NCBI GenBank assembly: GCA_016183325.1
Contig: JACPEV010000009.1
Location: forward strand, 1,303-65,302
Length of the DNA stretch: 64,000 nucleotides
From: Candidatus Curtissbacteria bacterium
GTDB lineage: Bacteria; Patescibacteriota; Microgenomatia; Curtissbacterales; GWA2-41-24
Reading direction: 5' to 3'
In this document: in pieces, positions 2,663 through 59,194 of the stretch
Layout of the letters: every line of letters starts with the position of its first letter
Position numbering within the stretch: the stretch's first letter is position 1
Notes under the pieces: model-generated
Seen by the model: the letters and a program-made list of their open reading frames with translations, nothing else
Database searches by the model: none
What the model was told of the DNA's origin: nothing
Position numbers and translations under genes: made by a program

Positions 2663-3481
2663 ATGTCAAACAAAAAGCAAAAAAGATCCAAAATCGCTAA
2701 GACCCGTATCAAAACCGGATCTAAAACCATAGATAAAAAAAAGATCACAGAAGGCACTGAAAATAAATTGAAGGCACAGAAAAGAACGGCTAAAAAATCA
2801 GCGCCCTCAAATATCTCAGTACCTTCAGTGATCACAAAACAATCAGGACCCTCAAAACTTGCAATCAAATCAGTATCCGCTAAAGTCTTTAATATGCAGG
2901 GTAGGGGCCTAGGTGTCGTTGCCCTCCCTAAAGCAATTTTTGGACATTTGCCAAATCAAAATTTACTTGCTCAAGCCATCAGGGTCTATGTGGCCAACAG
3001 TCATCCGCACACGGCTCACACTAAAACTCGAGCGGAAGTCGCCGGCGGAGGCACCAAACCTTGGCGCCAAAAAGGCACTGGCAGGGCTCGAGCCGGATCA
3101 ATCCGTTCACCGCTTTGGGTTGGTGGAGGCACGACTTTTGGTCCAAGGACAAAAGATACCAAGCTTTCACTGCCTAAAAAAATGAAGCATAAAGCATTAA
3201 TTGACGCGCTATCTGCAAAAGCTAAAGCTGGCGACATCAAAGTGATTTCAAATATTGAAAAAGTAGAGCCAAAAACCAAAAAGATTGCCACACTCTTGAA
3301 AAAGTTAGATGTTGGTAAAAATACTCTTCTTATTGTTTCCGAAAGAACCAAGAACGTTCATTTAGCCACACGTAACATCCCAAATATTAAAGTAGACATA
3401 CCTTCAAACCTAAACGCCTACGAAGTTACTAAAAATAATGACTTGTTAATCTCAAAGGAATCCCTACCCAAATTTAAATGA
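2663..3481 (+). CDS. rplD: 50S ribosomal protein L4 with Lys-rich ~75-aa N-terminal extension
   Basis: ...[42 protein letters not shown]... L4 core; start 9 nt after the rplC stop. Confidence 0.9.
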
Positions 3482-3801
3482 AACCAACTGACCTAATTAA
3501 AACATCAATCCTTTCCGAAAAAGCTTACAAGCAGATGGAAAATGGTATCTATACATTCTTGGTTGATAAGAGGTCAACCAAGAATCAAATAGTCAAAGCC
3601 GTCGAAAATCAATTCGCCGTTAATGTCATTCGGGTTAACGTATCTAAAAAATCTTTCAAGATGAAAAGAATTGGCAGGACTCGAAAACAAGCAAAAGTAG
3701 GCGGCGGCAAAAAAGCCATTGTCTATCTTAAAGCAGGCCAAAATATCGCAATTCTAAGTCCATCTAAAAAAGAAACTAAAAGCATTAAAAAGGAGAAATA
3801 A
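3478..3801 (+). CDS. rplW: 50S ribosomal protein L23
   Basis: L23-like sequence and operon position. Confidence 0.9.
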   Translation: MKPTDLIKTSILSEKAYKQMENGIYTFLVDKRSTKNQIVKAVENQFAVNVIRVNVSKKSFKMKRIGRTRKQAKVGGGKKAIVYLKAGQNIAILSPSKKETKSIKKEK

Positions 3802-5400: not shown

Positions 5401-5844
5401 ATGATAGTTACCGCTACAGCTAAAAATGTCAGATTATCGCCCGAAAAGGCTCGTCTCGTCGTGGCGCAAATAAAAAAAATGAAGCCTTCCTATGCGATTG
5501 CAATTTTAGATCATGTTCACAAATCTTCATCACCAATTCTAAAAAAGGTGATCAAATCTGCCATTGCCAATGCTAAGAATAATTTCAATTTGGATGAGAA
5601 AACACTTACCTTTAAAGAAATTTTAGTTGGAAAAGGCCCGGTTTTTAAAAGATATAGAGCCGTCGCCAGAGGTAGAGCCCATTCTATTTTAAAGCGAACA
5701 AGCAATATAAAAGTGGTTTTAGAAGGAGAAAAAACAAAAGAGGTATCAAAAGTATCACAGGTACCAGAAGTATCACAGGACAAATCAAATATACGAGAAC
5801 GTATTTTTGATAAATCGAAAAGTAAAGATCAAAAATCAAAATGA
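5401..5844 (+). CDS. rplV: 50S ribosomal protein L22 with C-terminal extension partly encoded by a dispersed repeat
   Basis: L22 core ...RYRAVARGRAHSILKRTSNIKVVLEG...; tail ...NIRERIFDKSKSKDQKSK overlaps the repeat at 5783-5846. Confidence 0.9.
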   Translation: MIVTATAKNVRLSPEKARLVVAQIKKMKPSYAIAILDHVHKSSSPILKKVIKSAIANAKNNFNLDEKTLTFKEILVGKGPVFKRYRAVARGRAHSILKRTSNIKVVLEGEKTKEVSKVSQVPEVSQDKSNIRERIFDKSKSKDQKSK

Positions 5845-5846
5845 CA
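5783..5846. repeat. 62-nt dispersed repeat, copy 1 (diverged), containing the TTTT(T/C)GAT-AA-ATCGAAAA palindrome
   Basis: Aligns to 6589-6648 and 14445-14504. Confidence 0.6.
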
Positions 5847-5943
5847 AACCTATATTTATTGTTAGACTCATCACTCATCACTTACTCGCCTCGCTTCGCT
5901 CGCGAAGCGGGTCACTCATCACTACCGACCGAAGGGAGGTCTT

Positions 5944-6582: not shown

Positions 6583-6588
6583 TAAATC

Positions 6589-6648
6589 AAAAATCAAATA
6601 TACCAAAGCGTATTTTCGATAAATCGAAAAGCAAAAATCAAAATGACA
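6589..6648. repeat. 62-nt dispersed repeat, copy 2
   Basis: aaaaatcaaatataccaaagcgtattttcgataaatcgaaaagcaaaaatcaaaatgaca; near-identical to 14445-14504. Confidence 0.7.
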
Positions 6649-6765
6649 TGTAAAAATTTAAAAACTATAAAATCCAAAATTGTAGCTTGCTTTGCAAGTA
6701 CAATTTTGTCCATTAAGGGAAAGGGAATATTAAGGGAAAACCGCTAGGTTTGCCCTTAAAGTTAT

Positions 6766-14434: not shown

Positions 14435-14444
14435 TAGTTAATTT

Positions 14445-14504
14445 AAAAATCAAATATACCAAAGCGTATTTTCGATAAATCGAAAAGCAAAAATCAAAAT
14501 GACA
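14445..14504. repeat. 62-nt dispersed repeat, copy 3
   Basis: Near-identical to 6589-6648; followed by ttccattttccattttcaattttcca. Confidence 0.7.
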
Positions 14505-14565
14505 AGCAAAAACTTTCCATTTTCCATTTTCAATTTTCCATTAACTGCGACTGAAAGGAGCTATT

Positions 14566-21671: not shown

Positions 21672-21734
21672 GCCTCAGCCAAAGGCTGATCGTCCTCTGG
21701 ACAAAACTGTCAGCCAAAGGCTGATCGTCCTCTG
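21672..21734. repeat. Tandem duplication of a 28-nt unit (tcagccaaaggctgatcgtcctctggac x2, 7-nt spacer)
   Basis: Exact copies at 21672-21699 and 21707-21734, adjacent to the tRNA-like fragment. Confidence 0.8.
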
Positions 21735-21766
21735 GACGAAACTGGAAACAACAAATCTTGCTAAAT

Positions 21767-28274: not shown

Positions 28275-29060
28275 ATGTTAAAAAAATATTTCAAAATCTG
28301 GCTTTTGATGACAACTTGCGTTTCACAAATCGCTTTCCTTTCACGCTTTGGTGCAGTCTTGTTTATTATTGGCAAATTCCTACGCTTCGGATTCTTTTTA
28401 CTTTTTCTAATTATTCTAGAGACGCAAACCAAGGGCATCGAAGGTTATAATCTTTGGCAAGTGATATTTTTCTTTGCAACCTTCAATCTCATCGACACCC
28501 TACCTCAGCTATTCTTTCGTGAAGTTTATCGCTTTAGATCTTATGTTGTCTCGGGTCAATTTGATTTCTTTTTGACCAAACCGCTCTCACCACTTTTTAG
28601 ATCACTTCTTGGGGGAAGCGATATTTTAGATCTTTCGATGATTTTTATTGCAGTCGGTTTTATTGCACTCTCTGCCACTCGACTTGAGGGTATTACTGGT
28701 CTATCCATAATTTCTTATCTACTTTTGATTGCCAACGCTTTAGTAATTGCCATGGCACTGCACATTCTGGTTATCTCAGTTGGTGTTTTAACGACCGAAG
28801 TTGACAACACCATTATGCTTTATCGGGATATCACCCAAATGGGCCGCATTCCTGTGGATGTTTACCGCGAACCGCTAAGCTTCCTAATCACCTTTGTTAT
28901 ACCTGTCGGAGTTATGGCGACCTTCCCGGCCAAAGCTTTAATGGGACTGTTGACCTTGCAGTTTATGATGATTTCTTTTTTAATCAGCGGAATTTTACTG
29001 GCAGCAAGCCTTGCTTTTTGGAAGTTTTCCCTCAAAAACTACTCGTCGATATCTACTTAA
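28275..29060 (+). CDS. ABC-2 family transporter permease 2
   Basis: Polytopic hydrophobic protein, second permease of the ATPase+2-permease trio. Confidence 0.7.
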   Translation: MLKKYFKIWLLMTTCVSQIAFLSRFGAVLFIIGKFLRFGFFLLFLIILETQTKGIEGYNLWQVIFFFATFNLIDTLPQLFFREVYRFRSYVVSGQFDFFLTKPLSPLFRSLLGGSDILDLSMIFIAVGFIALSATRLEGITGLSIISYLLLIANALVIAMALHILVISVGVLTTEVDNTIMLYRDITQMGRIPVDVYREPLSFLITFVIPVGVMATFPAKALMGLLTLQFMMISFLISGILLAASLAFWKFSLKNYSSIST

Positions 29061-29078
29061 TTAAGCCCTCAAATTTAG

Positions 29079-29192
29079 GTAACTGTTCACCGTTACTGAC
29101 ACAACGCATATTGTTCGAGGCTGAAAGCCGAGAACTAAACTTCTCGCTCACGCTCGAAGAGTAATAACGTGTCAGCGATTGTGAACTCTTAC
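29079..29192 (+). repeat. 114-bp exact repeat, copy A (MITE-like; terminal inverted repeats gtaa-ctg-ttcac ... gtgaa-ctc-ttac)
   Basis: Identical base for base to 55393-55506; sits 10 nt upstream of dgkA. Confidence 0.85.
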
Positions 29193-29202
29193 AAATTTAG
29201 TT

Positions 29203-29604
29203 ATGGATAGAATCCGTGTTAAGATTATTGATATGGGACATAGAGATAGTTTCTTTAAGCATCAGATAGTCAGTTTTTCTTATGCTATCGAAGGAATCAT
29301 TTATAGCTTTAAAAAAGGTACTCATTTTAAAATCCAGACTCTGGCCGCAGTTGCGGCCGTAATTGCCGCAGTCATTTATAAAATTAGCTATATTGAATGG
29401 TTGACTATCATCCTTATCTCGTCAGCCATTCTGGCTGCCGAAGCGATCAACACGGGCATTGAAGAAACTGGCGATGTTTTGCATCCCGAACATCATCCTC
29501 GCGTCAAATTGGCCAAACACTGCGCCGCCGGCGGTGTCCTCATCCTATCCATCGCAGCAGTCATTATCGGAGCAATTATTTTCCTCCCAAAAATCTTCGT
29601 CTAA
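29203..29604 (+). CDS. dgkA: Diacylglycerol/undecaprenol kinase family protein (DgkA-like)
   Basis: ...EWLTIILISSAILAAEAINTGIEETGD...HPRVKLAKHCAAGGVLI... DgkA motifs. Confidence 0.75.
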   Translation: MDRIRVKIIDMGHRDSFFKHQIVSFSYAIEGIIYSFKKGTHFKIQTLAAVAAVIAAVIYKISYIEWLTIILISSAILAAEAINTGIEETGDVLHPEHHPRVKLAKHCAAGGVLILSIAAVIIGAIIFLPKIFV

Positions 29605-34149: not shown

Positions 34150-36078
34150 ATGGATTTAATGCTATTAACTATTTTAGTGATTATAATTACGGTTTTTTTT
34201 GGATATGCTATTTTAAGTCTTTTCGCAACGCAATTGAGATTCAACGAAAAAATAGCTTCTAGTTTTATAATTGGAATCTCGTTATATTCATTATTAACCT
34301 TTTTGATTGCGAATGTCTTTAAGTTAAGTTTTTTAACTATTTTTTTCTCTACAACAATTGTTGTCTTATTTGCGGTAGTAATTTTGGTAAAAAGAAAATC
34401 CTATTATTTCAAAGATTTTTTAACATCTCATGAGCAAATAAAAAATTTTTTGAAAAACAAGTATTTACTATTCACTTTTATTTTTTTCACCATTCTTTTT
34501 TCTAAAATTTTTTACCAAACTTTCGTTCCTGAAAAAGCCGGCTTTTATGCAGGTTCACTAGGATTTTGGGGTGATGGCGCTTTGCATCTCACATTGATTA
34601 ACTCCTTTTTTAAAGGAGATAATTTTTGGCCCCAACAACCACTTTTTGCAGGTGTTAAATTAAGCTATCCGTTTTTACCGGACTTCACCAGTAGTATTTT
34701 CCTAAAGTTGGGAAGTTCAGTGCGCACTGCTATAGCACTTCCTTCTGTACTATTACTTTCCGCATCAATCTTGCTTCTCTACTCGATTTTCCATCAAATA
34801 ACTAAATCTAAGCTTGCCGCTTCTCTAGCAATCTTCATAATATTTTTCCTTGGCGGTTTAGGTTTTATCTACTTCTTCGAGGATTTGGTCAGGACCAATT
34901 TCGCATTTTCTACATTTGCATATCCTCCAAGAGAATACACATCGATGGGAAACGAGAAAGGTATCCACTACATTAATCTAATTACATCTCCTATAGTTTC
35001 TCAAAGAGCCTTTTTATTTGGTTTTCCTCTGATTTTGGTAATTTATATGGTCTTAAGAGAGGCTTTGGAAAAGTTAGACGTAAAACAATTTATTTTCGCT
35101 GGTCTATTAGTAGGTGTTCTGCCATTTATACACAGTCACACTCTTCTGACCTTGGGAATTGCGTTGCCTGTATTTGCTTTAGTTAACCTAATTAATAGGC
35201 CAAAGTCCGAAATAAAAAAGCTCTTTTTATTGTGGACCATTTTTGGAATAATCGCTGCTGCTCTAATTGTCCCACAACTTTTATTGTTTTTTCCCCGGGA
35301 CATCTCGGTTAACACTCTGCGGTTTCAATTTGGCTGGATGGCTCATGTTAAAAATGACAATATTTTTTGGTTTTGGATCAAAAATACTGGCCTTTTAATA
35401 CCTTTAATTATATTGTCTCCAATAGTTTTAGGAAAACAGAAATTTATCAAACTCTTTAAGTTTTATTTGCCATTTTTGGGAATTTTCATTGTTGCAAATT
35501 TTATTATATTCCAACCCTTAGAATACGATAACAGTAAAGTTTTTAACTATTGGTATATTTTTTCCGCACCGCTTGCTGCAACAGTAATTATAAACTTTTT
35601 AAAGAGGAATTCACTGTTTAAAATTATTGGGGTGGTTCTTTTTATCGTCCTTATCTTATCAGGTTTTTTAGATGTTTGGCGCTTGAATAATTATCAAGAG
35701 AACAGAATTCTAATGTTTGATAATGAAAGTATTAAACTTGCTGATTTTGTTTCTATTCATACTGAACCAAGATCAATTTTTGTTACGGCCATTCAACACA
35801 ATCATTCTGTCTTAGCTCTTGCAGGAAGAAGGGTTTTAGTTGGTTACACTGGATGGTTGTGGACTTACAGTATTAACTATGGTCCACGTGAGCAAGATGT
35901 CAGAATGATCTATCAAGGGGGCAATCTATCCCAAAACTTACTTAATAAATATAGCGTTAATTATCTTGTTATCGGGCCAGTAGAGAGTTCGCAGTTTCAA
36001 ATAAATGAACAATTTTTCGAGCAAAATTTCGCCCGTATTTACTCAACGCCTGCGTATCGAGTTTATAAAATATCATGA
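34150..36078 (+). CDS. Large polytopic membrane protein, paralog family member 1 (642 aa)
   Basis: Shares N-terminal W.DG.H....SF.KGDNFWPQQPLFAG..LSYPFL and C-terminal LAGRRVLVGYTGWLW...GPREQDV motifs with 37455-39251 and 39294-41201. Confidence 0.7.
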   Translation: MDLMLLTILVIIITVFFGYAILSLFATQLRFNEKIASSFIIGISLYSLLTFLIANVFKLSFLTIFFSTTIVVLFAVVILVKRKSYYFKDFLTSHEQIKNFLKNKYLLFTFIFFTILFSKIFYQTFVPEKAGFYAGSLGFWGDGALHLTLINSFFKGDNFWPQQPLFAGVKLSYPFLPDFTSSIFLKLGSSVRTAIALPSVLLLSASILLLYSIFHQITKSKLAASLAIFIIFFLGGLGFIYFFEDLVRTNFAFSTFAYPPREYTSMGNEKGIHYINLITSPIVSQRAFLFGFPLILVIYMVLREALEKLDVKQFIFAGLLVGVLPFIHSHTLLTLGIALPVFALVNLINRPKSEIKKLFLLWTIFGIIAAALIVPQLLLFFPRDISVNTLRFQFGWMAHVKNDNIFWFWIKNTGLLIPLIILSPIVLGKQKFIKLFKFYLPFLGIFIVANFIIFQPLEYDNSKVFNYWYIFSAPLAATVIINFLKRNSLFKIIGVVLFIVLILSGFLDVWRLNNYQENRILMFDNESIKLADFVSIHTEPRSIFVTAIQHNHSVLALAGRRVLVGYTGWLWTYSINYGPREQDVRMIYQGGNLSQNLLNKYSVNYLVIGPVESSQFQINEQFFEQNFARIYSTPAYRVYKIS

Positions 36079-36100: not shown

Positions 36101-37463
36101 ATGCGTACAACTTTATTCACCATTTTGCTGTTGTTGATTACAATTTTAGGTTTAATTCTACGATTTTTAGATTATGACAAATTCCCTCCATTTGATGCCA
36201 CTAAGGATGAATTCTTTTATTCTTGGGCAGGGATGTCTTTAATTCAAACGGGTACTCCAAAATCTTGGTCAATATTTAACGCATATCCAGATGGAGAACT
36301 TGTTTATAAATGGGGTACATGGTATAGGTTAGTTTCTCCTTGGTTAGATAAACCTCCGTTATATTCTTTAATTACTGGTTCATGGGTTTTATTAAATGGT
36401 GCAAGAGATCTATTCGATGTACGTCTATCCATCTTGAGAGTTATCCTTATTTTTTAAAGTTTTTTCACTATTTTCTTAACCGGTATATTAGCTAAAAAAA
36501 TTTTCTCGCCAACAGTCGGAATTCTTGCCTCATTGCTATATGCATTCACTCCGACCATAGTAATATCTAATCGTCTTTCACTTACTGAAAACTTACTAAC
36601 ACCGCTCTCTCTTCTTACTCTTTGGTTTTTCTCCCAAAATCAACAGGGGATATGGTCAAAAATCAAACCTTGGGTCGTCGGATTGACTTGCGGCTTGGCT
36701 CTCATCTCCAAAAATATCGCCATCACCTTGCCAGCTGTCTTAATCTGGTTGCTTTTCGAGAAAAAACAATGGCGTAATTTATTAATCATTGCTGCATTTT
36801 CTTTATTCTTTGCCTTAATCCATCCCCTTATCGGTCTTTATTACAATTGGGATCTTTATCTTGCAGTCTTGGCCGATTATGGAAAGGCCCACAGTCTGGG
36901 ATTACCCAAGCTAGTTACTACTCTCTTCAGATTCCCCGTCATTGGCCATAAAGAAGCCATTTTCCTAGATGGATCCATACTCGCAGGCTATATTCTTTTT
37001 TTTCAGTTCGCCGTTTTGGCTAAAAGGCAAATTAGAAGATATGAATCTTAAACTACTGTTAGCTTTTCCCTTTGCTACTCTGGTTCTCCTTTCAGAATTA
37101 GAAGGCGGAAAGACCTTTTTCGGTTGGCACCTATTTCCTCTATTTCCGTTTCTCTCGATACTTCTGGCCAAAGCCTTTTACGATCTCTGGCAAAATCCCA
37201 ATTTATTAAAATCATTGTTTTTCTATCTAATTCTCGGCTCATCAACGGTCCGCTTTTTTCTACTCTTGACACTCCAATCTCAAAAATCATGGCAATGGAT
37301 TTTAGGGACGTTGTTGGTAATTTTAATTGTTGGATTTTTCCCGAAAACTGCCTATCGACGAATTGTCTTACTGGCTTACTTTATGGTGTTTTTCGTTGTC
37401 AATGTTTTAGTAGTCATCAATCTAAACCAAATTTATCCCAGCTATCCGCAACCCTTAGAGTAA
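36101..37463 (+). pseudogene. Disrupted PMT/GT-C-like glycosyltransferase gene (in-frame TAA at 36455-36457, then a frameshift near 36970-37050)
   Basis: ORFs 36101-36457 and 36533-37051 are in the same frame, separated by one stop with continuous sense on both sides. Third piece 36969-37463 is in another frame; T8 homopolymer at ~36998. Confidence 0.55.
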
Positions 37464-39251
37464 GAGAACTAAGTATTTCTGATTCTGGTAGACTTTTTTG
37501 AACTGTTGTGGAGCTTCGAAGTTATATTTATCGACGGGAATTACTATGTATTTAACAGGTACCTCCAAATTACCAATCTGCGAAAAATTACCAGCTAAAA
37601 TTTGATTAACTTCTTGTTCCCGCTTACCATAATCAATTCCATGAACCCAAAGATGTCCGGGATAACCGATGTAAACTAAACGTCCAGCCAATCCAGAAAT
37701 TGGGTTGACAGGAGTTGGTTCAACTATAAACACGTCACGAGTATTGGTGTTTGATTTTGCCCAATTGGCAAGATCAATATCCCAATTGTCATAAAGTACG
37801 TATCTATTTTTTAATTGCAATTCTAAAGATAAAGATCCGCTGGCGATAGAGATCAGGATAATTACTCCGGCAGTGACCTTTGCGACTAGTCCCTTTTGGG
37901 CAAGTTTTGCAAGCAAAAATCCAGTCAAAATCACAAAAAACAAGAAAGACCACGATAAAAGCTTTATATTATCCCAATCCCAAGGCTGAAAAATCACCAA
38001 ATTGGCGATTATAAAAACCACAAAAGCAGGAATAAAGAATATTTTTTGATCACGCTTTACAAACCAAAACCCCAGTATTGCCAAAGGAATTGTCAAAAAC
38101 GTATTTTTAAGCCAAAAGACTAGAATATTTTCATCCCCATTTTGCCAACCCAGACTTGTATGCAAGAATTGACTAACTTGATGATTTGTAAAAAACAAAA
38201 ATAAAAAGGGGACCATCGTCGCAACAGCCACCAAACCCATTGAAGAAAAATCAACAAATGCTTTTTTGAAATTTTGTCGCATTGACCAGACAGCAAAGAT
38301 TGCACTAACAATTGAGAAGAAAATAAAAGAGTGTGTATGCCAGAAAGGCAAAGATCCCAAAATCAGACCGTTAATCAACAAAAGCTTTCTATCCTTTGGC
38401 CCGAAATATTCCATGAAATTTGAAAACATCAAAAGCCCTAAGAAAAGCCCCGGCAAAAAACTTCTCTCAGACAATACAAGTCCTGTCAAGATATTGCGAA
38501 AGTATAAATTATATTGGGCATTATCAGTATAATCTTTTGTCAAAAATTGCCAAAAGCCTCCACCTTGAGTACCCCATTCATTTAAAAAGAAAATTACGCC
38601 AACACCCCAACCCAAAAATAAAATCAAAAGTGAGATCACAAAACCTATATCCGAAGTAAATTTTCTACAAATCTGATAGAAGAGAACCAAAAATCCTATC
38701 AAAAACAAAATCTGTGGTAAGGAAAATGCTAAATTGAAATTTAAACCGGCGATTTTTAGTGTTGACGAAAGTAAATCATTGGCAAATGGATAAACTAAAA
38801 TGCGGCCTGCAAAAAGAGGATTCTGGATTGGAAACTCACCGGTTGTCAGTCGTGAAGTATAGGCGGCATGCAGAGCCGAGTCTCCATACATCCCACCGCC
38901 ACCAGTTTTTAATCCAACGCTTGTTGCAGCCAGGGTTTGGGTCAGCCAAATATAAGCCAATAACATCGTTGTAACTGCGGTGACTGCCAAAAATACTGGC
39001 GAAATTTCGCCAAAATCGTTCTTCGGTTTAAACTTCACAAAAATTGTCAATGCCAAGATTCCTGCCACAATCAGTGCTACAATAACCCCATTGAATAAAC
39101 CTAGAAAAAAAGAAAAAAGCAGCGCAAGCTCGCCAAAAACAAAAAGACCTAAAGCCGGTGCCACCAATAACCTGTATGGCCAGCCAAAATTTTTAGGCAA
39201 AATAGGGACAAATCCTATCCCCAAGGCCGCAATAGCCAAAAGCAAAAGCAT
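37455..39251 (-). CDS. Large polytopic membrane protein, paralog family member 2 (598 aa)
   Basis: Motifs PIQNPLFAGRILVYPF and LAGRLVYIGYPGHLWVHGIDYGKREQEV. Confidence 0.7.
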   Translation of the reverse strand: MLLLLAIAALGIGFVPILPKNFGWPYRLLVAPALGLFVFGELALLFSFFLGLFNGVIVALIVAGILALTIFVKFKPKNDFGEISPVFLAVTAVTTMLLAYIWLTQTLAATSVGLKTGGGGMYGDSALHAAYTSRLTTGEFPIQNPLFAGRILVYPFANDLLSSTLKIAGLNFNLAFSLPQILFLIGFLVLFYQICRKFTSDIGFVISLLILFLGWGVGVIFFLNEWGTQGGGFWQFLTKDYTDNAQYNLYFRNILTGLVLSERSFLPGLFLGLLMFSNFMEYFGPKDRKLLLINGLILGSLPFWHTHSFIFFSIVSAIFAVWSMRQNFKKAFVDFSSMGLVAVATMVPFLFLFFTNHQVSQFLHTSLGWQNGDENILVFWLKNTFLTIPLAILGFWFVKRDQKIFFIPAFVVFIIANLVIFQPWDWDNIKLLSWSFLFFVILTGFLLAKLAQKGLVAKVTAGVIILISIASGSLSLELQLKNRYVLYDNWDIDLANWAKSNTNTRDVFIVEPTPVNPISGLAGRLVYIGYPGHLWVHGIDYGKREQEVNQILAGNFSQIGNLEVPVKYIVIPVDKYNFEAPQQFKKVYQNQKYLVLLL

Positions 39252-39293: not shown

Positions 39294-41201
39294 ATGGGCT
39301 CAATTTTTTTGCTTCTCTCCTCATTTATCTCTGGCCTGGCAACTTTAGAATTAACCCAGATTGTTTTGCCTTGGCCAGTGCGTGCTGTTTTTGCCACCGT
39401 TTTAGGTCTTATTATTAATACTTTAGCCATCTTTTTAGTTTCTCTATTTGTAAAATTTAATCTGATCAGTGTCCTGGTAACAATCTTTTTAATTTCTTTG
39501 CCTTCATTAATTTATTTAATTAAAAAATCTTCGTTTCAAAATATTATTGAAGATAATCTGGATATTAAAAAGAATTGGCAGATAATTTTAGGATTTTCGA
39601 TCATTACAATTTTTTTAATTTTAATTTTTAGCAAATCTATTTTCGTCAATTCCAGTGGCATCATCGCAGGCAACCGTCTCGTTTGGACCGATTGGCCAGT
39701 CCACATAGCCATCATTACATCGTTTGTGAAAGGTGATAATTTCCCGCCCCAGAACCCATTATATGCAGGCCAACTTATCTCCTATCCTTTCCTCTCAAAT
39801 TTTCTCTCAAGTGTCTTGCAGATTTTAGGCGCTAGCCTAAAAACCTCTCTGGTTCTTCCGGGCATACTTCTTGGACTGTCGGCAATAACAACCGTCTATT
39901 TTTTGGGGATTCTCTTAACAGCCCAAAAACAGATGGCCATCACAGGACTTTTGATCGGCGTTTTTTGGGGAGGATTGGGATTTTTATATTACGCTGTCGA
40001 CCTGCTTTCATCACCCAATTTTATTGAAACACTCAAGTTTCCTCCAATAGAGTACACTTTTTATCATCTCAAAAATTTATGGTTTTTCTCATTTTTGTAC
40101 TCTGAACTTTTACCTCAAAGGGCTTTCCTCTTTGGCCTGCCAATGTTTTTTATGGCACTGATACTCTTGATTCTTGGATTATCCCACCATAAAAAGACCT
40201 ATTTACTAGTCGCTGGTTATTTGGTTGGCATCATGCCCTTTTTCCATATGCATTCTTATCTTAGCTTCTTACTTTTCAGTGTTATTTTTATTCCGCTTGC
40301 GCAAGTTACCAGTTTAAAAAAAAATGGCCAAACTTCGACCAAAAGACAACTAATCTATGTCATTATTTATTTTGCCCTGCCCATCATTGGTCTTGGTTTA
40401 ATTCAACTCCCGTTTTTGCTTTCAATTAATTTAAATCAAACTTTTGGTTTTAACTGGGGCTGGATGAAAGAGCAAGAAAACTTTTTTTTATTTTGGTTTA
40501 AAAATACCGGATTCTTCTGGCCTCTATGGCTCTTTGCAATTTTCAAAACCAAATTAAATCAACTTGTCAAAAATGTGGCCATTGCCTCAGCAATTTTATT
40601 TATACTACCTAATATTTTTCGCTTTGCTCCCTGGCCCTATGACAATCTAAAAATTATGACTTATTGGTATTTAATCGGCGCTTTTTTAGTTGCCATTGCC
40701 CTAGTAGAAATCTACAAAAAAGGTCTTTCGGGGAAAATTTTGGCCATCGCTCTTTTTATTTCTCTGACTGCATCAGGAGCAATCGAGGTTTTTCGAATTT
40801 TCAATACCCCAAAAACTCAAATTCCTCTTTGGTCCTCAAAGGACATCGAACTTTCAAACTCTATCATTAAAAATACCGAAGCAGAGTCAGTAATCTTAAC
40901 CGCCGCCGTCCACGATCATCCCGTAACTGCCCTTGCTGGCAGAAAAATCATCATTGGTTTTCCCGGCAACGCCTGGTCATGGGGACTTGCCGATTGGTCA
41001 CAAAGAGAAGCAGATGTTAGAACCATCCTCAAGGGTGATGCCATTTATGCTCCTTATCTTCTTGCCAAATATAAAGTCAACTATGTCCTGATCAGTCCTC
41101 GAGAAAGATATTTTGAACCGGGTTTAAATGAACAGTACTTTCAAGAGAAATTTACCTTTGTCATTGGCGATTCTGATTACAAATTGTTTAAAGTCCCATG
41201 A
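39294..41201 (+). CDS. Large polytopic membrane protein, paralog family member 3 (635 aa)
   Basis: Motifs PPQNPLYAGQLISYPFL and LAGRKIIIGFPGNAWSWGLADWSQREADV. Confidence 0.7.
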   Translation: MGSIFLLLSSFISGLATLELTQIVLPWPVRAVFATVLGLIINTLAIFLVSLFVKFNLISVLVTIFLISLPSLIYLIKKSSFQNIIEDNLDIKKNWQIILGFSIITIFLILIFSKSIFVNSSGIIAGNRLVWTDWPVHIAIITSFVKGDNFPPQNPLYAGQLISYPFLSNFLSSVLQILGASLKTSLVLPGILLGLSAITTVYFLGILLTAQKQMAITGLLIGVFWGGLGFLYYAVDLLSSPNFIETLKFPPIEYTFYHLKNLWFFSFLYSELLPQRAFLFGLPMFFMALILLILGLSHHKKTYLLVAGYLVGIMPFFHMHSYLSFLLFSVIFIPLAQVTSLKKNGQTSTKRQLIYVIIYFALPIIGLGLIQLPFLLSINLNQTFGFNWGWMKEQENFFLFWFKNTGFFWPLWLFAIFKTKLNQLVKNVAIASAILFILPNIFRFAPWPYDNLKIMTYWYLIGAFLVAIALVEIYKKGLSGKILAIALFISLTASGAIEVFRIFNTPKTQIPLWSSKDIELSNSIIKNTEAESVILTAAVHDHPVTALAGRKIIIGFPGNAWSWGLADWSQREADVRTILKGDAIYAPYLLAKYKVNYVLISPRERYFEPGLNEQYFQEKFTFVIGDSDYKLFKVP

Positions 41202-51444: not shown

Positions 51445-51506
51445 ATTTTATTCAGACTTCTATACCTAATCAAGGATAGCTTATTGTAAATCTGAAACTT
51501 ATGAAC

Positions 51507-51540
51507 CATCACACTCGATGACATATCACAGAGCGTGATG
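51507..51540. promoter_or_regulatory. 34-bp imperfect palindrome overlapping the putative promoter (-10 ttataat at 51541-51547) of the PaaX-like gene
   Basis: ccatcacactcgatgacatatcacagagcgtgatg; related copy immediately after the gene stop. Confidence 0.5.
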
Positions 51541-51564
51541 TTATAATCCGATCTGCAGAACATT

Positions 51565-52140
51565 ATGAAAGTAGATCCAAAACGAAAAGAAGTTTTAACA
51601 ATGTTAGGTCTTGGTGTATTTCTTTCCGTAAGCATTATCTTCCCGGGACTACCGTTAATAACTAAAAAAATTCTCGACATCGCGCAAGAAGAAGAAATAA
51701 GGAAAAAGCAAAAAGATTGGGATAAATTCAACTTATGGCGCCTTCGGCAGTTAATAAAAAGGATGCAGGATTCAAAATATATTGAAATCAAAGAAGAAAA
51801 TGGAATTCCAATTATCAAAATAACACAAAAAGGTAAAAACAAGCTCTTGAGTTATGATTTGGAAAAGTTAAAGCTCAATGAAACTAAATGGGATGGTAGA
51901 TGGAGACTGATTATATATGACGTTCAAAAATCAAAAAGGGCAAACAGTGAAACATTCAGAAGAGCATTGTTGAGGTTGAACTTACTAAAATTACAAAAAA
52001 GCGTCTACTTGACACCATTTAAATGCGAGGACGAAATTGAATATCTCAGATTACTTTTTGATATAGGTAAAGAAGTACAAATTTTGACTGTAGGAAGCTT
52101 GGAAAACGAATCTGCCTACAGACGCTACTTCGGAATCTAA
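51565..52140 (+). CDS. PaaX-family-like transcriptional regulator (wHTH + PaaX_C-like domain)
   Basis: WDGRWRLIIYDVQKSKRANSETFRRALLRLNLLKLQKSVYLTPF resembles the PaaX C-domain (WdGrW.lv.yslPe..R..R..lrr.L.w.GFg.l..gvWisP); N-terminal KEVLTMLGLGVF... and YIEIKEENGIPIIKITQKGKNKL resemble a winged helix. Confidence 0.5.
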   Translation: MKVDPKRKEVLTMLGLGVFLSVSIIFPGLPLITKKILDIAQEEEIRKKQKDWDKFNLWRLRQLIKRMQDSKYIEIKEENGIPIIKITQKGKNKLLSYDLEKLKLNETKWDGRWRLIIYDVQKSKRANSETFRRALLRLNLLKLQKSVYLTPFKCEDEIEYLRLLFDIGKEVQILTVGSLENESAYRRYFGI

Positions 52141-52141
52141 C

Positions 52142-52179
52142 ACCATCACACTCCGTGATATGTCACAATACGTGATGGT
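52142..52179. promoter_or_regulatory. 38-bp imperfect palindrome immediately after the PaaX-like gene stop (second copy of the operator-like element, or a terminator hairpin)
   Basis: accatcacactccgtgatatgtcacaatacgtgatggt; shares the ccatcacactc and cgtgatg arms with 51507-51540, with an inverted core. Confidence 0.5.
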
Positions 52180-52240
52180 ATTGTGATTGACGTTTTTCGG
52201 CAATGACGCCCTAGAAGTCACAAGGAAAGTAAATTAAACC

Positions 52241-54910: not shown

Positions 54911-55348
54911 TTACAAAATATAGGGGATGAATTTTTTGGTTTTATTTTTATAATCCGCATATTCCGGATGCTTGGCGATCAACATTACCTCTTCCATGTC
55001 TGCCTTTAGATTTAAAACATAAATCAAAAATAACCAGATCAAAAACGATTCTAATCTCAACTGAGAAAGCACCAATCCCAGCCCCATCACAACCATCCCC
55101 GTATACATTGGATGACGCACGTATCTATACAAACCCTTTTGTTGGAAAGTTCGGCCTTCTCTCGGTTCCGGGTAAGGAGAATATGACTTAATACCGATAT
55201 TAAAAAATCCGGCCACTAAAATCCCGGCTCCCAAACCAAAAATCAAAGACAGTACTAGATCTTTGGCAATATTGCCTAAATCTCCCAGAAAGAAAAGCAA
55301 CCCCAAAAATATTACCTGAAGATAGATAATCCAACGATTATCGTGCAT
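54911..55348 (-). CDS. Isoprenylcysteine carboxyl methyltransferase (ICMT/PEMT) family membrane protein
   Basis: YRYVRHPMYTGMVVMGLGL ICMT signature; 4 TM segments. Confidence 0.7.
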   Translation of the reverse strand: MHDNRWIIYLQVIFLGLLFFLGDLGNIAKDLVLSLIFGLGAGILVAGFFNIGIKSYSPYPEPREGRTFQQKGLYRYVRHPMYTGMVVMGLGLVLSQLRLESFLIWLFLIYVLNLKADMEEVMLIAKHPEYADYKNKTKKFIPYIL

Positions 55349-55392
55349 TTGTCTCCTAGAAAAACAATATCACAGGAATTTGCCCATAACAA

Positions 55393-55506
55393 GTAACTGT
55401 TCACCGTTACTGACACAACGCATATTGTTCGAGGCTGAAAGCCGAGAACTAAACTTCTCGCTCACGCTCGAAGAGTAATAACGTGTCAGCGATTGTGAAC
55501 TCTTAC
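55393..55506 (+). repeat. 114-bp exact repeat, copy B
   Basis: Identical to 29079-29192; 51 nt upstream of purP-1. Confidence 0.85.
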
Positions 55507-55557
55507 CATAACAACTCAAACTTTGCAATTTGGCGAAAATGTGTTTAAAATACGTCA

Positions 55558-56571
55558 ATGGCGGGCCGTTTAAGCTACAAAATAGCAACATTAGGTTCGC
55601 ACTCCGCGCTCCAAATCTTAAAAGGCGCCAAGGATGAGGGGTTCCAAACTCTCCTTGTCGCGACTCCAGGCCGTCTTTCTCTCTATAAACGCTTCAAATT
55701 TATAGACAAAATTATTCAGATCTCCTCTTATTCAGATTTCCCAAAAATCGAAAAACAACTCATTGCCGAAAACGCGGTCATTGTTCCACACGGCTCATTT
55801 GTTGCATATTTAGGCATCGATGAAAATAAAAAAATAAATGTTCCCTATTTTGGTAATAAAGCTGTTTTGGATTGGGAATCGGACAGACTTAAACAACGCT
55901 ATTGGTTAGAAAGTGCCAATGTCCCCGTTCCCCGAAGATTTACTCACCCCAGCGATATAGATGTTCCTGTCTTGGTTAAGTCTTACGGCGCTGCCGGTGG
56001 CCATGGTTATTTTTTCGCCAAAAATAAAGGAGAGTTTAAACAAAAAATCAAAAGTTTTAAAGCCAAAAATTACATCATTCAGGAATATGTCATTGGTGTT
56101 TCAGCTTACATCCATTACTTTTACTCTCCACTAACACAAAAACTTGAAATTCTCTCAATCGATAGGCGTTATGAAACCAATGTCGACTCTCTCGGCAGGA
56201 TTCCTTCTCACAATCAGCAAGGGCTTGGCATTGAACCTTCTTTTGTAGTTGTCGGCAATAGCCCGCTGGTTCTGCGCGAATCACTTTTGGTTGATGCTTT
56301 TGAAATGGGTGAGCGTACGATTGCTGCCTCCAAAAAATTAATGAAAGGTGGACTTTGGGGACCGTTTTGTCTTGAGGCCATAATTACCCCAGCTCAAGAA
56401 TTTTTCGTCATCGAAATTTCCTGCCGCATTGTTGCCGGCACAAACTTATTCATCAACGGTTCACCATACTCCTCACTATACTGGGACAAAGAAGTTTCCA
56501 CCGGTCGAAGAATCGCTATGGAAATTAAAGATGCGATAAAGAAACGGTTACTGAGTAAAATTTTAAATTAG
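55558..56571 (+). CDS. purP: Archaeal-type FAICAR synthetase (PurP, formate-dependent ATP-grasp), paralog 1
   Basis: IATLGSHSALQILKGAKDEGF...VPHGSFVAYLG...FGN...HYFYSP...IDRRYETN...GPFCLE close to characterised archaeal PurP. Confidence 0.8.
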   Translation: MAGRLSYKIATLGSHSALQILKGAKDEGFQTLLVATPGRLSLYKRFKFIDKIIQISSYSDFPKIEKQLIAENAVIVPHGSFVAYLGIDENKKINVPYFGNKAVLDWESDRLKQRYWLESANVPVPRRFTHPSDIDVPVLVKSYGAAGGHGYFFAKNKGEFKQKIKSFKAKNYIIQEYVIGVSAYIHYFYSPLTQKLEILSIDRRYETNVDSLGRIPSHNQQGLGIEPSFVVVGNSPLVLRESLLVDAFEMGERTIAASKKLMKGGLWGPFCLEAIITPAQEFFVIEISCRIVAGTNLFINGSPYSSLYWDKEVSTGRRIAMEIKDAIKKRLLSKILN

Positions 56572-56646: not shown

Positions 56647-57927
56647 ATGGCCAGTAAAAGTTTGAAAAATTGGCAGGGCATAGCTTGTGTCATCGGTTTA
56701 GATTTTGGTGATTCAGGTAAAGGTCGGCTTATTGACGATCTTGCCCAAAATGCCCATATTGTTGCCAGATTTAACGGTGGGTCAAACGCCGGCCATACCG
56801 TAAGAAATCAATTTGGCGCGTTCGCCCTGCACATGATTCCTTCAGGAATCTTTAACCAGAAAGCGACTTGCATCATTGGCAGGGGAGTCGCAGTCGATCT
56901 TGAATCTCTCATTGACGATGAATTTCAACAGTTGAAAAAAGTGGGCGTTTCCTGGAAAAATTTAATCATTGACGATCAGGCAACTTTAACTATGCCCTGG
57001 CATAAGCTAAAGGATGGAATTCGCGAAAATTACCGAAAAACAAAAATCGGAACGGTTGGTAAGGGCATTGGACCAACTTATGCCGATAGAGTCGAAAGAT
57101 CAGGATTGCGAGTTTACGATTTGATTGCCAAAGATTTCAGAGAAAAACTGGCAGATGAGTTATCGTTTCAAAATAAATTTTTTAACTTAAAATTAAAATT
57201 TGAAAATATATTTAGTCAGTACGCAAAATATGCCACCATCATCAAATCCCATGTAGCAACTACTATTCCCGTCATTAAGAAAGCTAAAAAAGATGGCAAA
57301 AATATTTTATTTGAAGGAGCCCAAGGGTACTTTTTAGACATTGATTCGGGTACTTATCCGTATGTTACATCATCTAGTACCGGGGTTTTAGGCATTTGGC
57401 GATCTTTTGATATTCACCCCTTCGACATCAATCAAGTCGTAGGAATTACCAAAGCTTATTTGACAAGAGTAGGAGCAGGCCCGATGCCCACAAAAATCAA
57501 CTCTCACGAGAAAGAAACCATCATCGAAAAAGGCACGGAATTTGGAACAACCTCCGGCAGGGTAAGGGATCCGGGCTGGTTGGATTTGGTATTAATAAAG
57601 CATGCAGTCGCCGCCAATAAAGTAAACAGTCTTGCCCTAACGAAACTAGATATTTTATCCGGCTTTAAGAATATAAAAATTTGCATCGGCTACAAAATTG
57701 CAAGTCAAGTTGCCAATTATGTATCAGGCGATGCAACTTCACTTGAAAAGTGCCAGCCCCAATATGAAGTGCTTCCAGGATGGCGCCAAGATATTTCAAA
57801 AGCTAGAAATTTTAAAGACCTTCCAAAAAATGCCAAGAACTATATAAAATTTATTGAAAAATTTACGCAAGTACCGGTCAATATTATTGGAGTCGGGCCA
57901 GAAAGGGAGCAAGCAATTTATGTCTAA
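56647..57927 (+). CDS. purA: Adenylosuccinate synthetase
   Basis: GLDFGDSGKGRLIDDL...NGGSNAGHTV... PurA. Confidence 0.9.
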   Translation: MASKSLKNWQGIACVIGLDFGDSGKGRLIDDLAQNAHIVARFNGGSNAGHTVRNQFGAFALHMIPSGIFNQKATCIIGRGVAVDLESLIDDEFQQLKKVGVSWKNLIIDDQATLTMPWHKLKDGIRENYRKTKIGTVGKGIGPTYADRVERSGLRVYDLIAKDFREKLADELSFQNKFFNLKLKFENIFSQYAKYATIIKSHVATTIPVIKKAKKDGKNILFEGAQGYFLDIDSGTYPYVTSSSTGVLGIWRSFDIHPFDINQVVGITKAYLTRVGAGPMPTKINSHEKETIIEKGTEFGTTSGRVRDPGWLDLVLIKHAVAANKVNSLALTKLDILSGFKNIKICIGYKIASQVANYVSGDATSLEKCQPQYEVLPGWRQDISKARNFKDLPKNAKNYIKFIEKFTQVPVNIIGVGPEREQAIYV

Positions 57928-59194
57928 AATGTACAAAACGCAAAATTATTCTTCGAGCGAATCCGCCAACTGGCGGAGAAGTCGAGAAACTACCTCTGAA
58001 AATATAATAAATTTTAAGGTAAGTTCTCGACCTGCCCCGTACCGTATGGTAACGGGGCAAGCTCGAACAATAACGGTAGCTGTTTTGGGGAGCCACTCTG
58101 CTCTAGATGTCTGCCGAGGTGCCAAGGACGAGGGTTTAAAGACTTTAGTCATCGCAGAATATGGGCGCGACAAAACTTACGCAGAGTATTTTAAAACTAG
58201 AAGTCCTTCGACAAGCTCAGGACGATCTTCGATCGGTTGCGTTGATGAAGTTTTGTATGTTGATAAATTTAAAGATATTCTTTTGCCAAAAATTCAGAAG
58301 ATCTTAAAATCAAAAAATAGCATTTTCATCCCCCATCGTTCCTTTGAAGTCTATATCAACGATTATGACGCCATCGAAAACGACTTTAAAATTCCCATAT
58401 TTGGAAATCGTAAACTTCTGAGAATAGAAGAAAGGTCCGAAAAACCAAATCAATATGACCTTTTGAAACAAACCGGTATTAAGTACCCAAAAACATTTAA
58501 AGATCCAAAAGATATTGATACTATTGTTATTGTTAAAGTAAACGAAAAAGAAAGAAAGTACGAAAGAGCCTTTTTCCTTGCAAGCACTCGCAAGCAGTAT
58601 CAGTCCGAGTCAGAAAGGTTAATTAAAGCAGGAGTTATTACTAAAAAAGATCTGAATGCCGCAATAATTGAAGAATTTATTTTAGGAGTCCAAGTTAATT
58701 TCAACTTCTTCTATTCTCCAATTAGTCGTCGACTCGAATTAGTTGGAACAGATACCAGAAGACAAACTGATATAGAAGGAATTTTAAGATTGCCTGTTGA
58801 CAGACAAAAGGAAATTCTTGAAATGAAGACTAGAGCTGGAAATAAAAAAATCAATCCTCAGTGGGAAGAAGCGGGGCACATTGCTGTCACTACTTTGGAA
58901 TCCTTACTTGAGCCTGCTTTCGAAATCGGAGAAAAGTTTATCAAAGCGGCCCGACAGATGGTTCCACCCGGCGTCATCGGTCCATTCAGTCTGCAATCAG
59001 TCATCACTCCCGGCCCGCCTAAAAAGGAAATTGTTGTTTTTGATGTTTCTCCAAGAGTGCCCGGCTCCCCAGGTATATCAAGCACTCCCTACAGCGCTTA
59101 TTTGTGGGGTCAATCCGTCAGCATGGGTCGTCGAGTTGCCATGGAAATTAAAAATGCAATCTTTAGAAAAAAACTGAATAAAATATTGACTTAA
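57920..59194 (+). CDS. PurP-family ATP-grasp protein, paralog 2
   Basis: VAVLGSHSALDVCRGAKDEGL...IPHRSFEVYI...FGNR...NFFYSP...TDTRRQTD...GPFSLQ; start chosen at ATG 57920 (RBS aagggag), overlapping the purA stop. Confidence 0.75.
   Translation: MSKMYKTQNYSSSESANWRRSRETTSENIINFKVSSRPAPYRMVTGQARTITVAVLGSHSALDVCRGAKDEGLKTLVIAEYGRDKTYAEYFKTRSPSTSSGRSSIGCVDEVLYVDKFKDILLPKIQKILKSKNSIFIPHRSFEVYINDYDAIENDFKIPIFGNRKLLRIEERSEKPNQYDLLKQTGIKYPKTFKDPKDIDTIVIVKVNEKERKYERAFFLASTRKQYQSESERLIKAGVITKKDLNAAIIEEFILGVQVNFNFFYSPISRRLELVGTDTRRQTDIEGILRLPVDRQKEILEMKTRAGNKKINPQWEEAGHIAVTTLESLLEPAFEIGEKFIKAARQMVPPGVIGPFSLQSVITPGPPKKEIVVFDVSPRVPGSPGISSTPYSAYLWGQSVSMGRRVAMEIKNAIFRKKLNKILT

Follow-up and report, generated by a model that had tools for sequence, protein, structure and literature searches.

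The window, by which we mean the whole 64-kb stretch of DNA that was analysed, belongs to Candidatus Curtissbacteria (CPR/Patescibacteria) and derives from an uncultured groundwater bacterium. Two of its intergenic regions each hold one copy of a 114-bp sequence. The proteins encoded beside these regions match NCBI entries for a Candidatus Curtissbacteria bacterium at 100% identity. Copy 1 (29079..29192, + strand) lies between an ABC-2 permease gene (stop at 29060) and dgkA (ATG at 29203; PF01219), 18 nt past the permease stop and 10 nt ahead of the dgkA ORF. Copy 2 (55393..55506, + strand) is located in the divergent spacer between a gene for an ICMT/PEMT-like membrane protein (minus strand, ATG at 55348) and purP (ATG at 55558), 44 nt from the start of the former and 51 nt ahead of the latter. 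This purP encodes an archaeal-type FAICAR synthetase (PF06849/PF06973), named formate--phosphoribosylaminoimidazolecarboxamide ligase, and is followed by purA, a second purP paralogue, purB, and purE. The paralogous archaeal-type PurP genes (DUF1246/DUF1297, FAICAR synthetase; 55558-56571 and 57854-59194) flank purA in a bacterial purine operon, and the two-purP/purA arrangement is kept in related Curtissbacteria.

The original prediction had described two 114-bp repeats, identical base for base and in the same orientation, each 10-50 nt upstream of a + strand gene. In our comparison of the window with itself, 114 of 114 positions were identical on the same strand at a copy-to-copy distance of 26 kb, and the measured distances of 10 nt (dgkA) and 51 nt (purP) bear out this description. 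The edges of the identity are sharp, with zero flanking bases extending the 114-nt match on either side of either copy. A 24-nt left-end probe, allowing up to 3 mismatches, found only these two copies in the window, with 0 expected in shuffles. The G+C content of the element is 46%, against 39% for the window.

Junctions between the element and its flanks are present in Logan assemblies from at least seven runs (SRR12113383/384/385/419/422/424/430). The Logan contigs that carry an identical dgkA or purP protein all start inside the element, keeping 16-30 nt of it (mostly 29-30), and a contig of SRR12113430 that carries the ICMT-like gene stops after 29 nt of the left end of copy 2. Breaks at about k-1 are expected where a k=31 de Bruijn graph branches at a repeat. 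For copy 2, both junctions are present in independent assemblies (L004-L007, L034). For the left junction of copy 1, the exact ABC-2 permease protein was sought in other assemblies and was not on record. As the junctions occur in independent assemblies, the repeat is not an assembly artefact; the junctions are real in independent data, and the element sequence is repeated in those populations. The practical effect is that the element breaks short-read assemblies of these organisms.

Both copies end in terminal inverted repeats. In copy 1, the left repeat (GTAACTGTTCACCGTTACTGACAC; 29079..29102, + strand) matches the right repeat (reverse complement GTAAGAGTTCACAATCGCTGACAC; 29169..29192, - strand) at 18 of 24 positions, and the repeats of copy 2 (55393..55416, + strand, and 55483..55506, - strand) have the same sequences as those of copy 1. 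The two ends read GTAACTGTTCAC..CTGACAC and GTAAGAGTTCAC..CTGACAC, and the exact terminal motif GTAANNGTTCAC occurs in the whole window at the four element termini only. The end-to-end complementarity extends inward, making the entire element one long imperfect hairpin. Folding also gave this single hairpin, in agreement with the long imperfect helix that the original prediction had assigned to the ends. The predicted folding energies of the two strands are −42.4 kcal/mol (z = −6.0), the value of the copy 1 hairpin, and −41.6 kcal/mol (z = −4.6).

The element has no coding frame that is shared between its two sites. Stop codons interrupt five of the six reading frames, no ORF is common to both sites, and the single open frame (37 codons) is part of an ORF at copy 2 only. 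The concatenated six-frame peptides of the element gave no match in a 5.8-billion-protein database, even at E <= 10. A non-coding length of 114 bp, within the range of about 50-600 bp, and inverted-repeat ends matching at 18 of 24 positions are properties of a MITE, a non-coding and non-autonomous DNA transposon.

The decisive evidence lies in the flanks, which the original prediction had not described. Perfect 8-bp direct repeats abut both termini of each copy, and they differ between the copies. Copy 1 is preceded by AAATTTAG at 29071..29078 and followed by exactly the same 8-mer at 29193..29200, and copy 2 is preceded by CATAACAA at 55385..55392 and followed by exactly the same 8-mer at 55507..55514. 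Target-site duplications had been named in the original prediction as a feature to look for, and a perfect 8-bp duplication is found at both copies. With the base composition of the window, the chance of a perfect 8-mer pair is ~2.4e-5 per copy and 5.6e-10 jointly. The base preceding the left repeat is C in both copies, the same as the final base of the element. If this final C is counted in the duplication, a 9-bp duplication (CAAATTTAG in copy 1) with a 113-bp element is the alternative, but the symmetry of the GTAA...TTAC ends favours the assignment of an 8-bp duplication and a 114-bp element. Duplications of a fixed length that differ from copy to copy are a further property of MITEs. The two different duplications indicate that the copies were inserted independently, and the lack of any divergence between them suggests that both insertions are recent.

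The original prediction had left the choice between recent transposition and gene conversion. Two copies that are 100% identical, 26 kb apart, and in the same orientation would fit gene conversion, and also an ectopic duplication in which an intergenic sequence already in place was copied without transposition. However, the identity stops exactly at the inverted-repeat termini, and each copy is bracketed by its own local 8-bp duplication, which conversion does not make. Two further observations, detailed below, also speak against conversion: neither site holds the element in relatives, and members of the family occur at unrelated loci of other genomes. The differing duplications uphold the transposition half of the earlier proposal and argue against gene conversion or segmental duplication, which we regard as barely credible.

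For the comparison with relatives, we used Curtissbacteria and Levybacteria contigs that were found via homologues of the ABC-2 permease for site 1 (L024-L027, 75-82% identity) and via homologues of purP for site 2 (L028-L033, 84-86% identity). With 75-86% amino acid identity in the flanking genes, the distance to these relatives is too great to align the empty sites base by base. Empty-site alleles in the source population would join CCCTCAAATTTAG to TTATGGATAG and GCCCATAACAA to CTCAAACTTTGC. The relatives at site 1 conserve the gene order ABC-ATPase/ABC2/ABC2/dgkA/radical-SAM/PMT, and the element was not found in their orthologous ABC2-dgkA spacers. Those spacers are 15 nt (L024), 71 nt (L025 and L026), and 51 nt (L027) long, compared with 142 nt in the window. 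When the element and one duplication are subtracted from the window spacer (142 - 122), 20 nt remain, which is a normal operon junction. Judged from these lengths, copy 1 splits an ABC2-dgkA junction that is tight in relatives.

At site 2, purP is preceded in the six relatives by spacers of 106-122 nt, and the element was not found in them. A consensus scan of the window located a promoter-like site for purP, TTGCAA-17-TAAAAT (55523..55551, + strand), outside the element and 16 nt downstream of it. Its −10 box ends 6 nt before the ATG. Four of the relatives (L030-L033), which are free of the element, conserve this block before the ATG in the form TTGC(A/T)-about 17 nt-TAAAAT-ACxTCA-ATG. The distance of 6 nt between the −10 box and the ATG suggests that the purP mRNA is leaderless or nearly leaderless in these CPR bacteria. 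Because the conserved promoter-like site sits between the element and purP, the element is probably outside the purP 5' UTR. Copy 2, being 16 nt upstream of the putative −35 box, would displace whatever preceded that box. The location of the copies just upstream of a gene looks incidental.

A BLAST search of the element against the loci of all ten relatives (L024-L033) gave nothing significant; the best alignment was 18 nt long (E = 0.14) at an unrelated position in L024. Both sites are element-free in the relatives and occupied in the window, which is the insertion polymorphism expected of a MITE. These sequence comparisons make it clear that the element is not conserved at either locus. The original prediction had named as its refuting case only two copies genome-wide with no target-site duplications, plus conservation of the element upstream of the same genes in related genomes with compensatory changes, which would point to a regulatory RNA instead; this case did not materialise.

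The element does have relatives elsewhere. We scanned 596 Gb of species-representative genomes, JGI metagenome contigs, and IMG/VR, collections from which the source genome is absent, with the both-ends pattern GTAASWGTTCACNNNNNCTGACAC, requiring an exact match at 17 fixed bases and at two two-fold degenerate positions. Only two real relatives were obtained, both in CPR sequences of the Microgenomates type. One is a 114-nt copy with 86% identity on a JGI metagenome contig (L015), where it neighbours antitoxin- and PIN-like ORFs at an unrelated locus. One of its two termini is mutated (ATAAC) and no duplication flanks it, which marks it as an old insertion. Directly before this diverged copy, at 497-528 of the contig, a GC-rich hairpin with perfect pairing (GGTCGGTCCTTGTACAAGGACCGACC) is followed by TTGTTT. 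This arrangement resembles a terminator and suggests that the copy was inserted next to one. The other relative is a relic in a Candidatus Levyibacteriota MAG (L011), with a deformylase-like gene on one side and a small zinc-ribbon gene on the other. It has an intact left end, a decayed right end, and a different, longer centre, and it has subterminal sequence in common with the element (ATATTGTTCGAG ... CTCGAAGA.TAAT). At 3007-3615 and 3612-3741 of L011, the deformylase-like ORF ends at 3615 in a TAA stop that belongs to the terminal GTAA of the relic itself; the insertion apparently replaced the original end of this gene.

The 14 other matches of the end pattern were rejected as chance single ends: none has a second end within 4 kb, and no ORF inward of them resembles a transposase gene. 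By our own estimate, ~17 chance matches are expected in the genome contigs, and the 14 are consistent with chance. A scan of viral contigs with the conserved core gave no match, nor did a blastn search of the element against plasmids and phages. An nhmmer profile of the two full-length copies found no extra copies in 286 kb of retrieved sequence. The family as sampled consists of two copies in the 64 kb of the window and, among the collections scanned, the relatives in L015 and L011 only.

Both copies precede + strand genes in the same orientation, at distances of 10 and 51 nt, and their predicted fold is very stable (z = −6.0), which would fit a structured cis-regulatory RNA (riboswitch, leader, or attenuator) controlling dgkA and purP. 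We consider such an RNA highly improbable. The opposite strand folds almost equally well, as expected of a DNA palindrome, and a strand-specific RNA is not favoured by this behaviour. Rfam returned no match anywhere in the window at gathering thresholds, and the search around copy 1 at E <= 10 gave none inside the element, consistent with the earlier remark that the exact identity argues against an independently conserved riboswitch and that ZTP and purine motifs are absent. The likeness to purine or ZTP riboswitches and leader RNAs consists only in the position upstream of a purine-biosynthesis gene. The element differs from them in lacking an Rfam match, in not being conserved at orthologous sites, in lying upstream of the conserved promoter-like site of purP, and in being flanked by target duplications, which are not a property of RNA motifs. 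In addition, dgkA and purP are functionally unrelated, and their orthologues in relatives do without the element.

Covariation, which had also been suggested as a check, could be assessed against one full-length diverged copy. Between the window copies and the L015 copy there are 17 substitutions, and the nine at paired positions are all one-sided, with 0 compensatory changes, so that the reading as a regulatory RNA is again unsupported. The changes at paired positions are mostly G-to-A on one strand and are derived in L015 where the alignment with L011 polarises them, a pattern which fits decay in an AT-rich genome. On the complementary strand, eight of the nine would still pair via G-U; this is a single comparison that is inseparable from mutational bias and carries little weight. 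The element therefore shows neither the conservation upstream of orthologues nor the covariation that characterise riboswitches and leaders. In front of purine genes it could pass for a regulatory RNA, a reading that our analysis largely refutes.

A transposon could nevertheless acquire a function after its insertion. We considered whether the element, a MITE in origin, was later domesticated and kept by selection, acting at the ABC2-dgkA junction as a hairpin that stabilises or attenuates the mRNA, or upstream of the purP promoter as an insulator or a site for protein binding. ERIC and Correia-type MITEs alter mRNA stability and processing. Copy 1 gives a probable operon junction a hairpin of −42 kcal/mol; this hairpin would be added to the predicted read-through ABC2-dgkA transcript 10 nt before the dgkA start. 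MITEAba12 of Acinetobacter has outward-facing promoters (PMC6382973). In contrast, our consensus scan predicted no sigma-70-like promoter inside the element, and the search for an intrinsic terminator (a GC-rich hairpin with a U-tract) was negative at either locus on either strand. Furthermore, zero divergence between the copies implies a recent insertion, leaving no time in which selection could be detected, and the copies in other genomes are decaying. Domestication is very unlikely on this evidence, although the insertions may still have effects on the neighbouring host genes.

Several other features of the window deserve a brief description. A second interspersed repeat family, with a core of ~60 nt (AAAAATCAAATATACCAAAGCGTATTTTCGATAAATCGAAAAGCAAAAATCAAAATGACA), is present at 5774-5850, 6583-6659, and 14439-14515, where it occupies intergenic gaps of an apparent ribosomal-protein/SecY gene cluster. 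Identity is 94% for copies 2 and 3, and that of copy 1 to the reference copy is 71%; inspection by eye revealed no obvious terminal inverted repeats and no target duplications. A 40-nt direct repeat (51505-51544 and 52142-52181, 80% identical) with an internal palindrome (ATCACACTC...GAGCGTGAT) brackets a 191-aa ORF (51565-52140). The gene of equal length at the matching position of L034 encodes a PaaX_M-domain regulator, and the 40-nt repeats may be operator sites. A tandem duplication at 21675-21744 has a 35-nt unit (TCAGCCAAAGGCTGATCGTCCTCTGGACAAAACTG) that is 97% identical between its two occurrences and contains a short hairpin. Three genes at 34150-36078 (+), 37455-39251 (-), and 39294-41201 (+) encode polytopic membrane proteins of ~600-640 aa, each with ~12 hydrophobic segments and no Pfam match. 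They cluster beside PMT- and YfhO-type glycosyltransferase genes and may represent an uncharacterised family of membrane glycosyltransferase-like proteins.

Taken with the inverted-repeat ends, the differing duplications, and the empty orthologous sites, the 114-bp element is very probably a MITE. If it behaves like other bacterial MITEs, both terminal inverted repeats would be bound by a transposase whose gene is, or once was, elsewhere in the genome, and which would mobilise the element in trans. The element would be inserted into a staggered target cut of 8 bp (possibly 9 bp), and repair of the gaps would yield the flanking direct repeats. Both copies would represent recent, independent insertions into AT-rich intergenic DNA of the Candidatus Curtissbacteria genome. 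No transposase was found in the window, whose large ORFs encode SecY, RNase Y, RecA, RpoA, PurD, and an ABC ATPase, and the precomputed Pfam lists of the retrieved loci are free of transposases. An autonomous parent with matching ends was found neither in the window nor in the end-pattern scans of genome, metagenome, and viral contigs.

We compared the element with known systems that have similar features. The ERIC, Correia (CREE), and RUP repeats are ~100-150 bp long, are near full-length imperfect palindromes, are inserted between genes, and are often co-transcribed. Their insertion duplicates a TA dinucleotide or is not known to leave an 8-bp duplication, and in Proteobacteria or Firmicutes these families number tens to hundreds of copies. 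We regard them as functional analogues, being hairpin-forming intergenic MITEs, but they have no sequence similarity to the element, and Rfam, which covers some such repeats, gave no match. Two other kinds of element were also rejected. The core sites of an integron attC site (RYYYAAC / GTTRRRY) are absent by eye, the neighbours are core genes, and attC sites have no target duplications. The REP/RAYT-type and IS200/IS605-type elements were ruled out since they leave no target duplication.

The closest analogue in form is MITEAba12, which is 113 bp long, has 9-bp duplications in AT-rich targets, retains the duplications in only 40% of its copies, and numbers 90 copies with ISAba12 as the parent IS (PMC6382973). 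Both elements are non-coding, have terminal inverted repeats and nearly the same length (113 vs 114 bp), and lie in AT-rich intergenic targets. Their duplications are also alike (9 bp, and 8 or 9 bp here), and in both cases young copies keep the duplications and older ones lose them. They differ in that there is no sequence similarity, that the host here is an uncultured CPR bacterium, and that only 2 + 2 copies are found here, compared with 90. Outward promoters are present in MITEAba12, whereas none was detected in our element, and a parent IS is identified for MITEAba12 only.

With regard to a possible parent, the IS66 family is characterised by terminal repeats of 20-30 bp starting with GTAAGCG and by an 8-bp target duplication (PMC11946415). 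The element resembles this family in its GTAA termini (GTAAG at the right end) and its 8-bp duplication, but the ends, GTAACTG and GTAAGAG, do not match the GTAAGCG consensus. Neither the window nor any retrieved locus yielded transposase genes of the IS66 type (TnpA/B/C). Descent from IS66 is only a lead and does not amount to membership of the family.

No description of MITEs in Candidate Phyla Radiation bacteria was found in the literature searched. The element represents a new, unnamed family of a well-known kind; its mechanism is not new, and it is an ordinary element in a little-studied lineage. Beyond GTAA, the ends of the element have no counterpart in any catalogued family, and the 596 Gb of reference genomes yielded no parent. 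It is conceivable, if unlikely, that this CPR bacterium with its reduced genome harbours a currently active DNA-transposition system. Its transposase would then represent an IS group that is undescribed or highly divergent, or would come from outside the lineage, such as from a host bacterium or a phage. If this were true, the two insertions, one at an operon junction and the other at the edge of a promoter, could rewire the expression of lipid (dgkA) and purine (purP) genes. Identical copies with intact duplications signify recent transposition in a small, streamlined CPR genome. The finding would not surprise a specialist; its use lies in the annotation of these genomes and in understanding the breaks in their assemblies.
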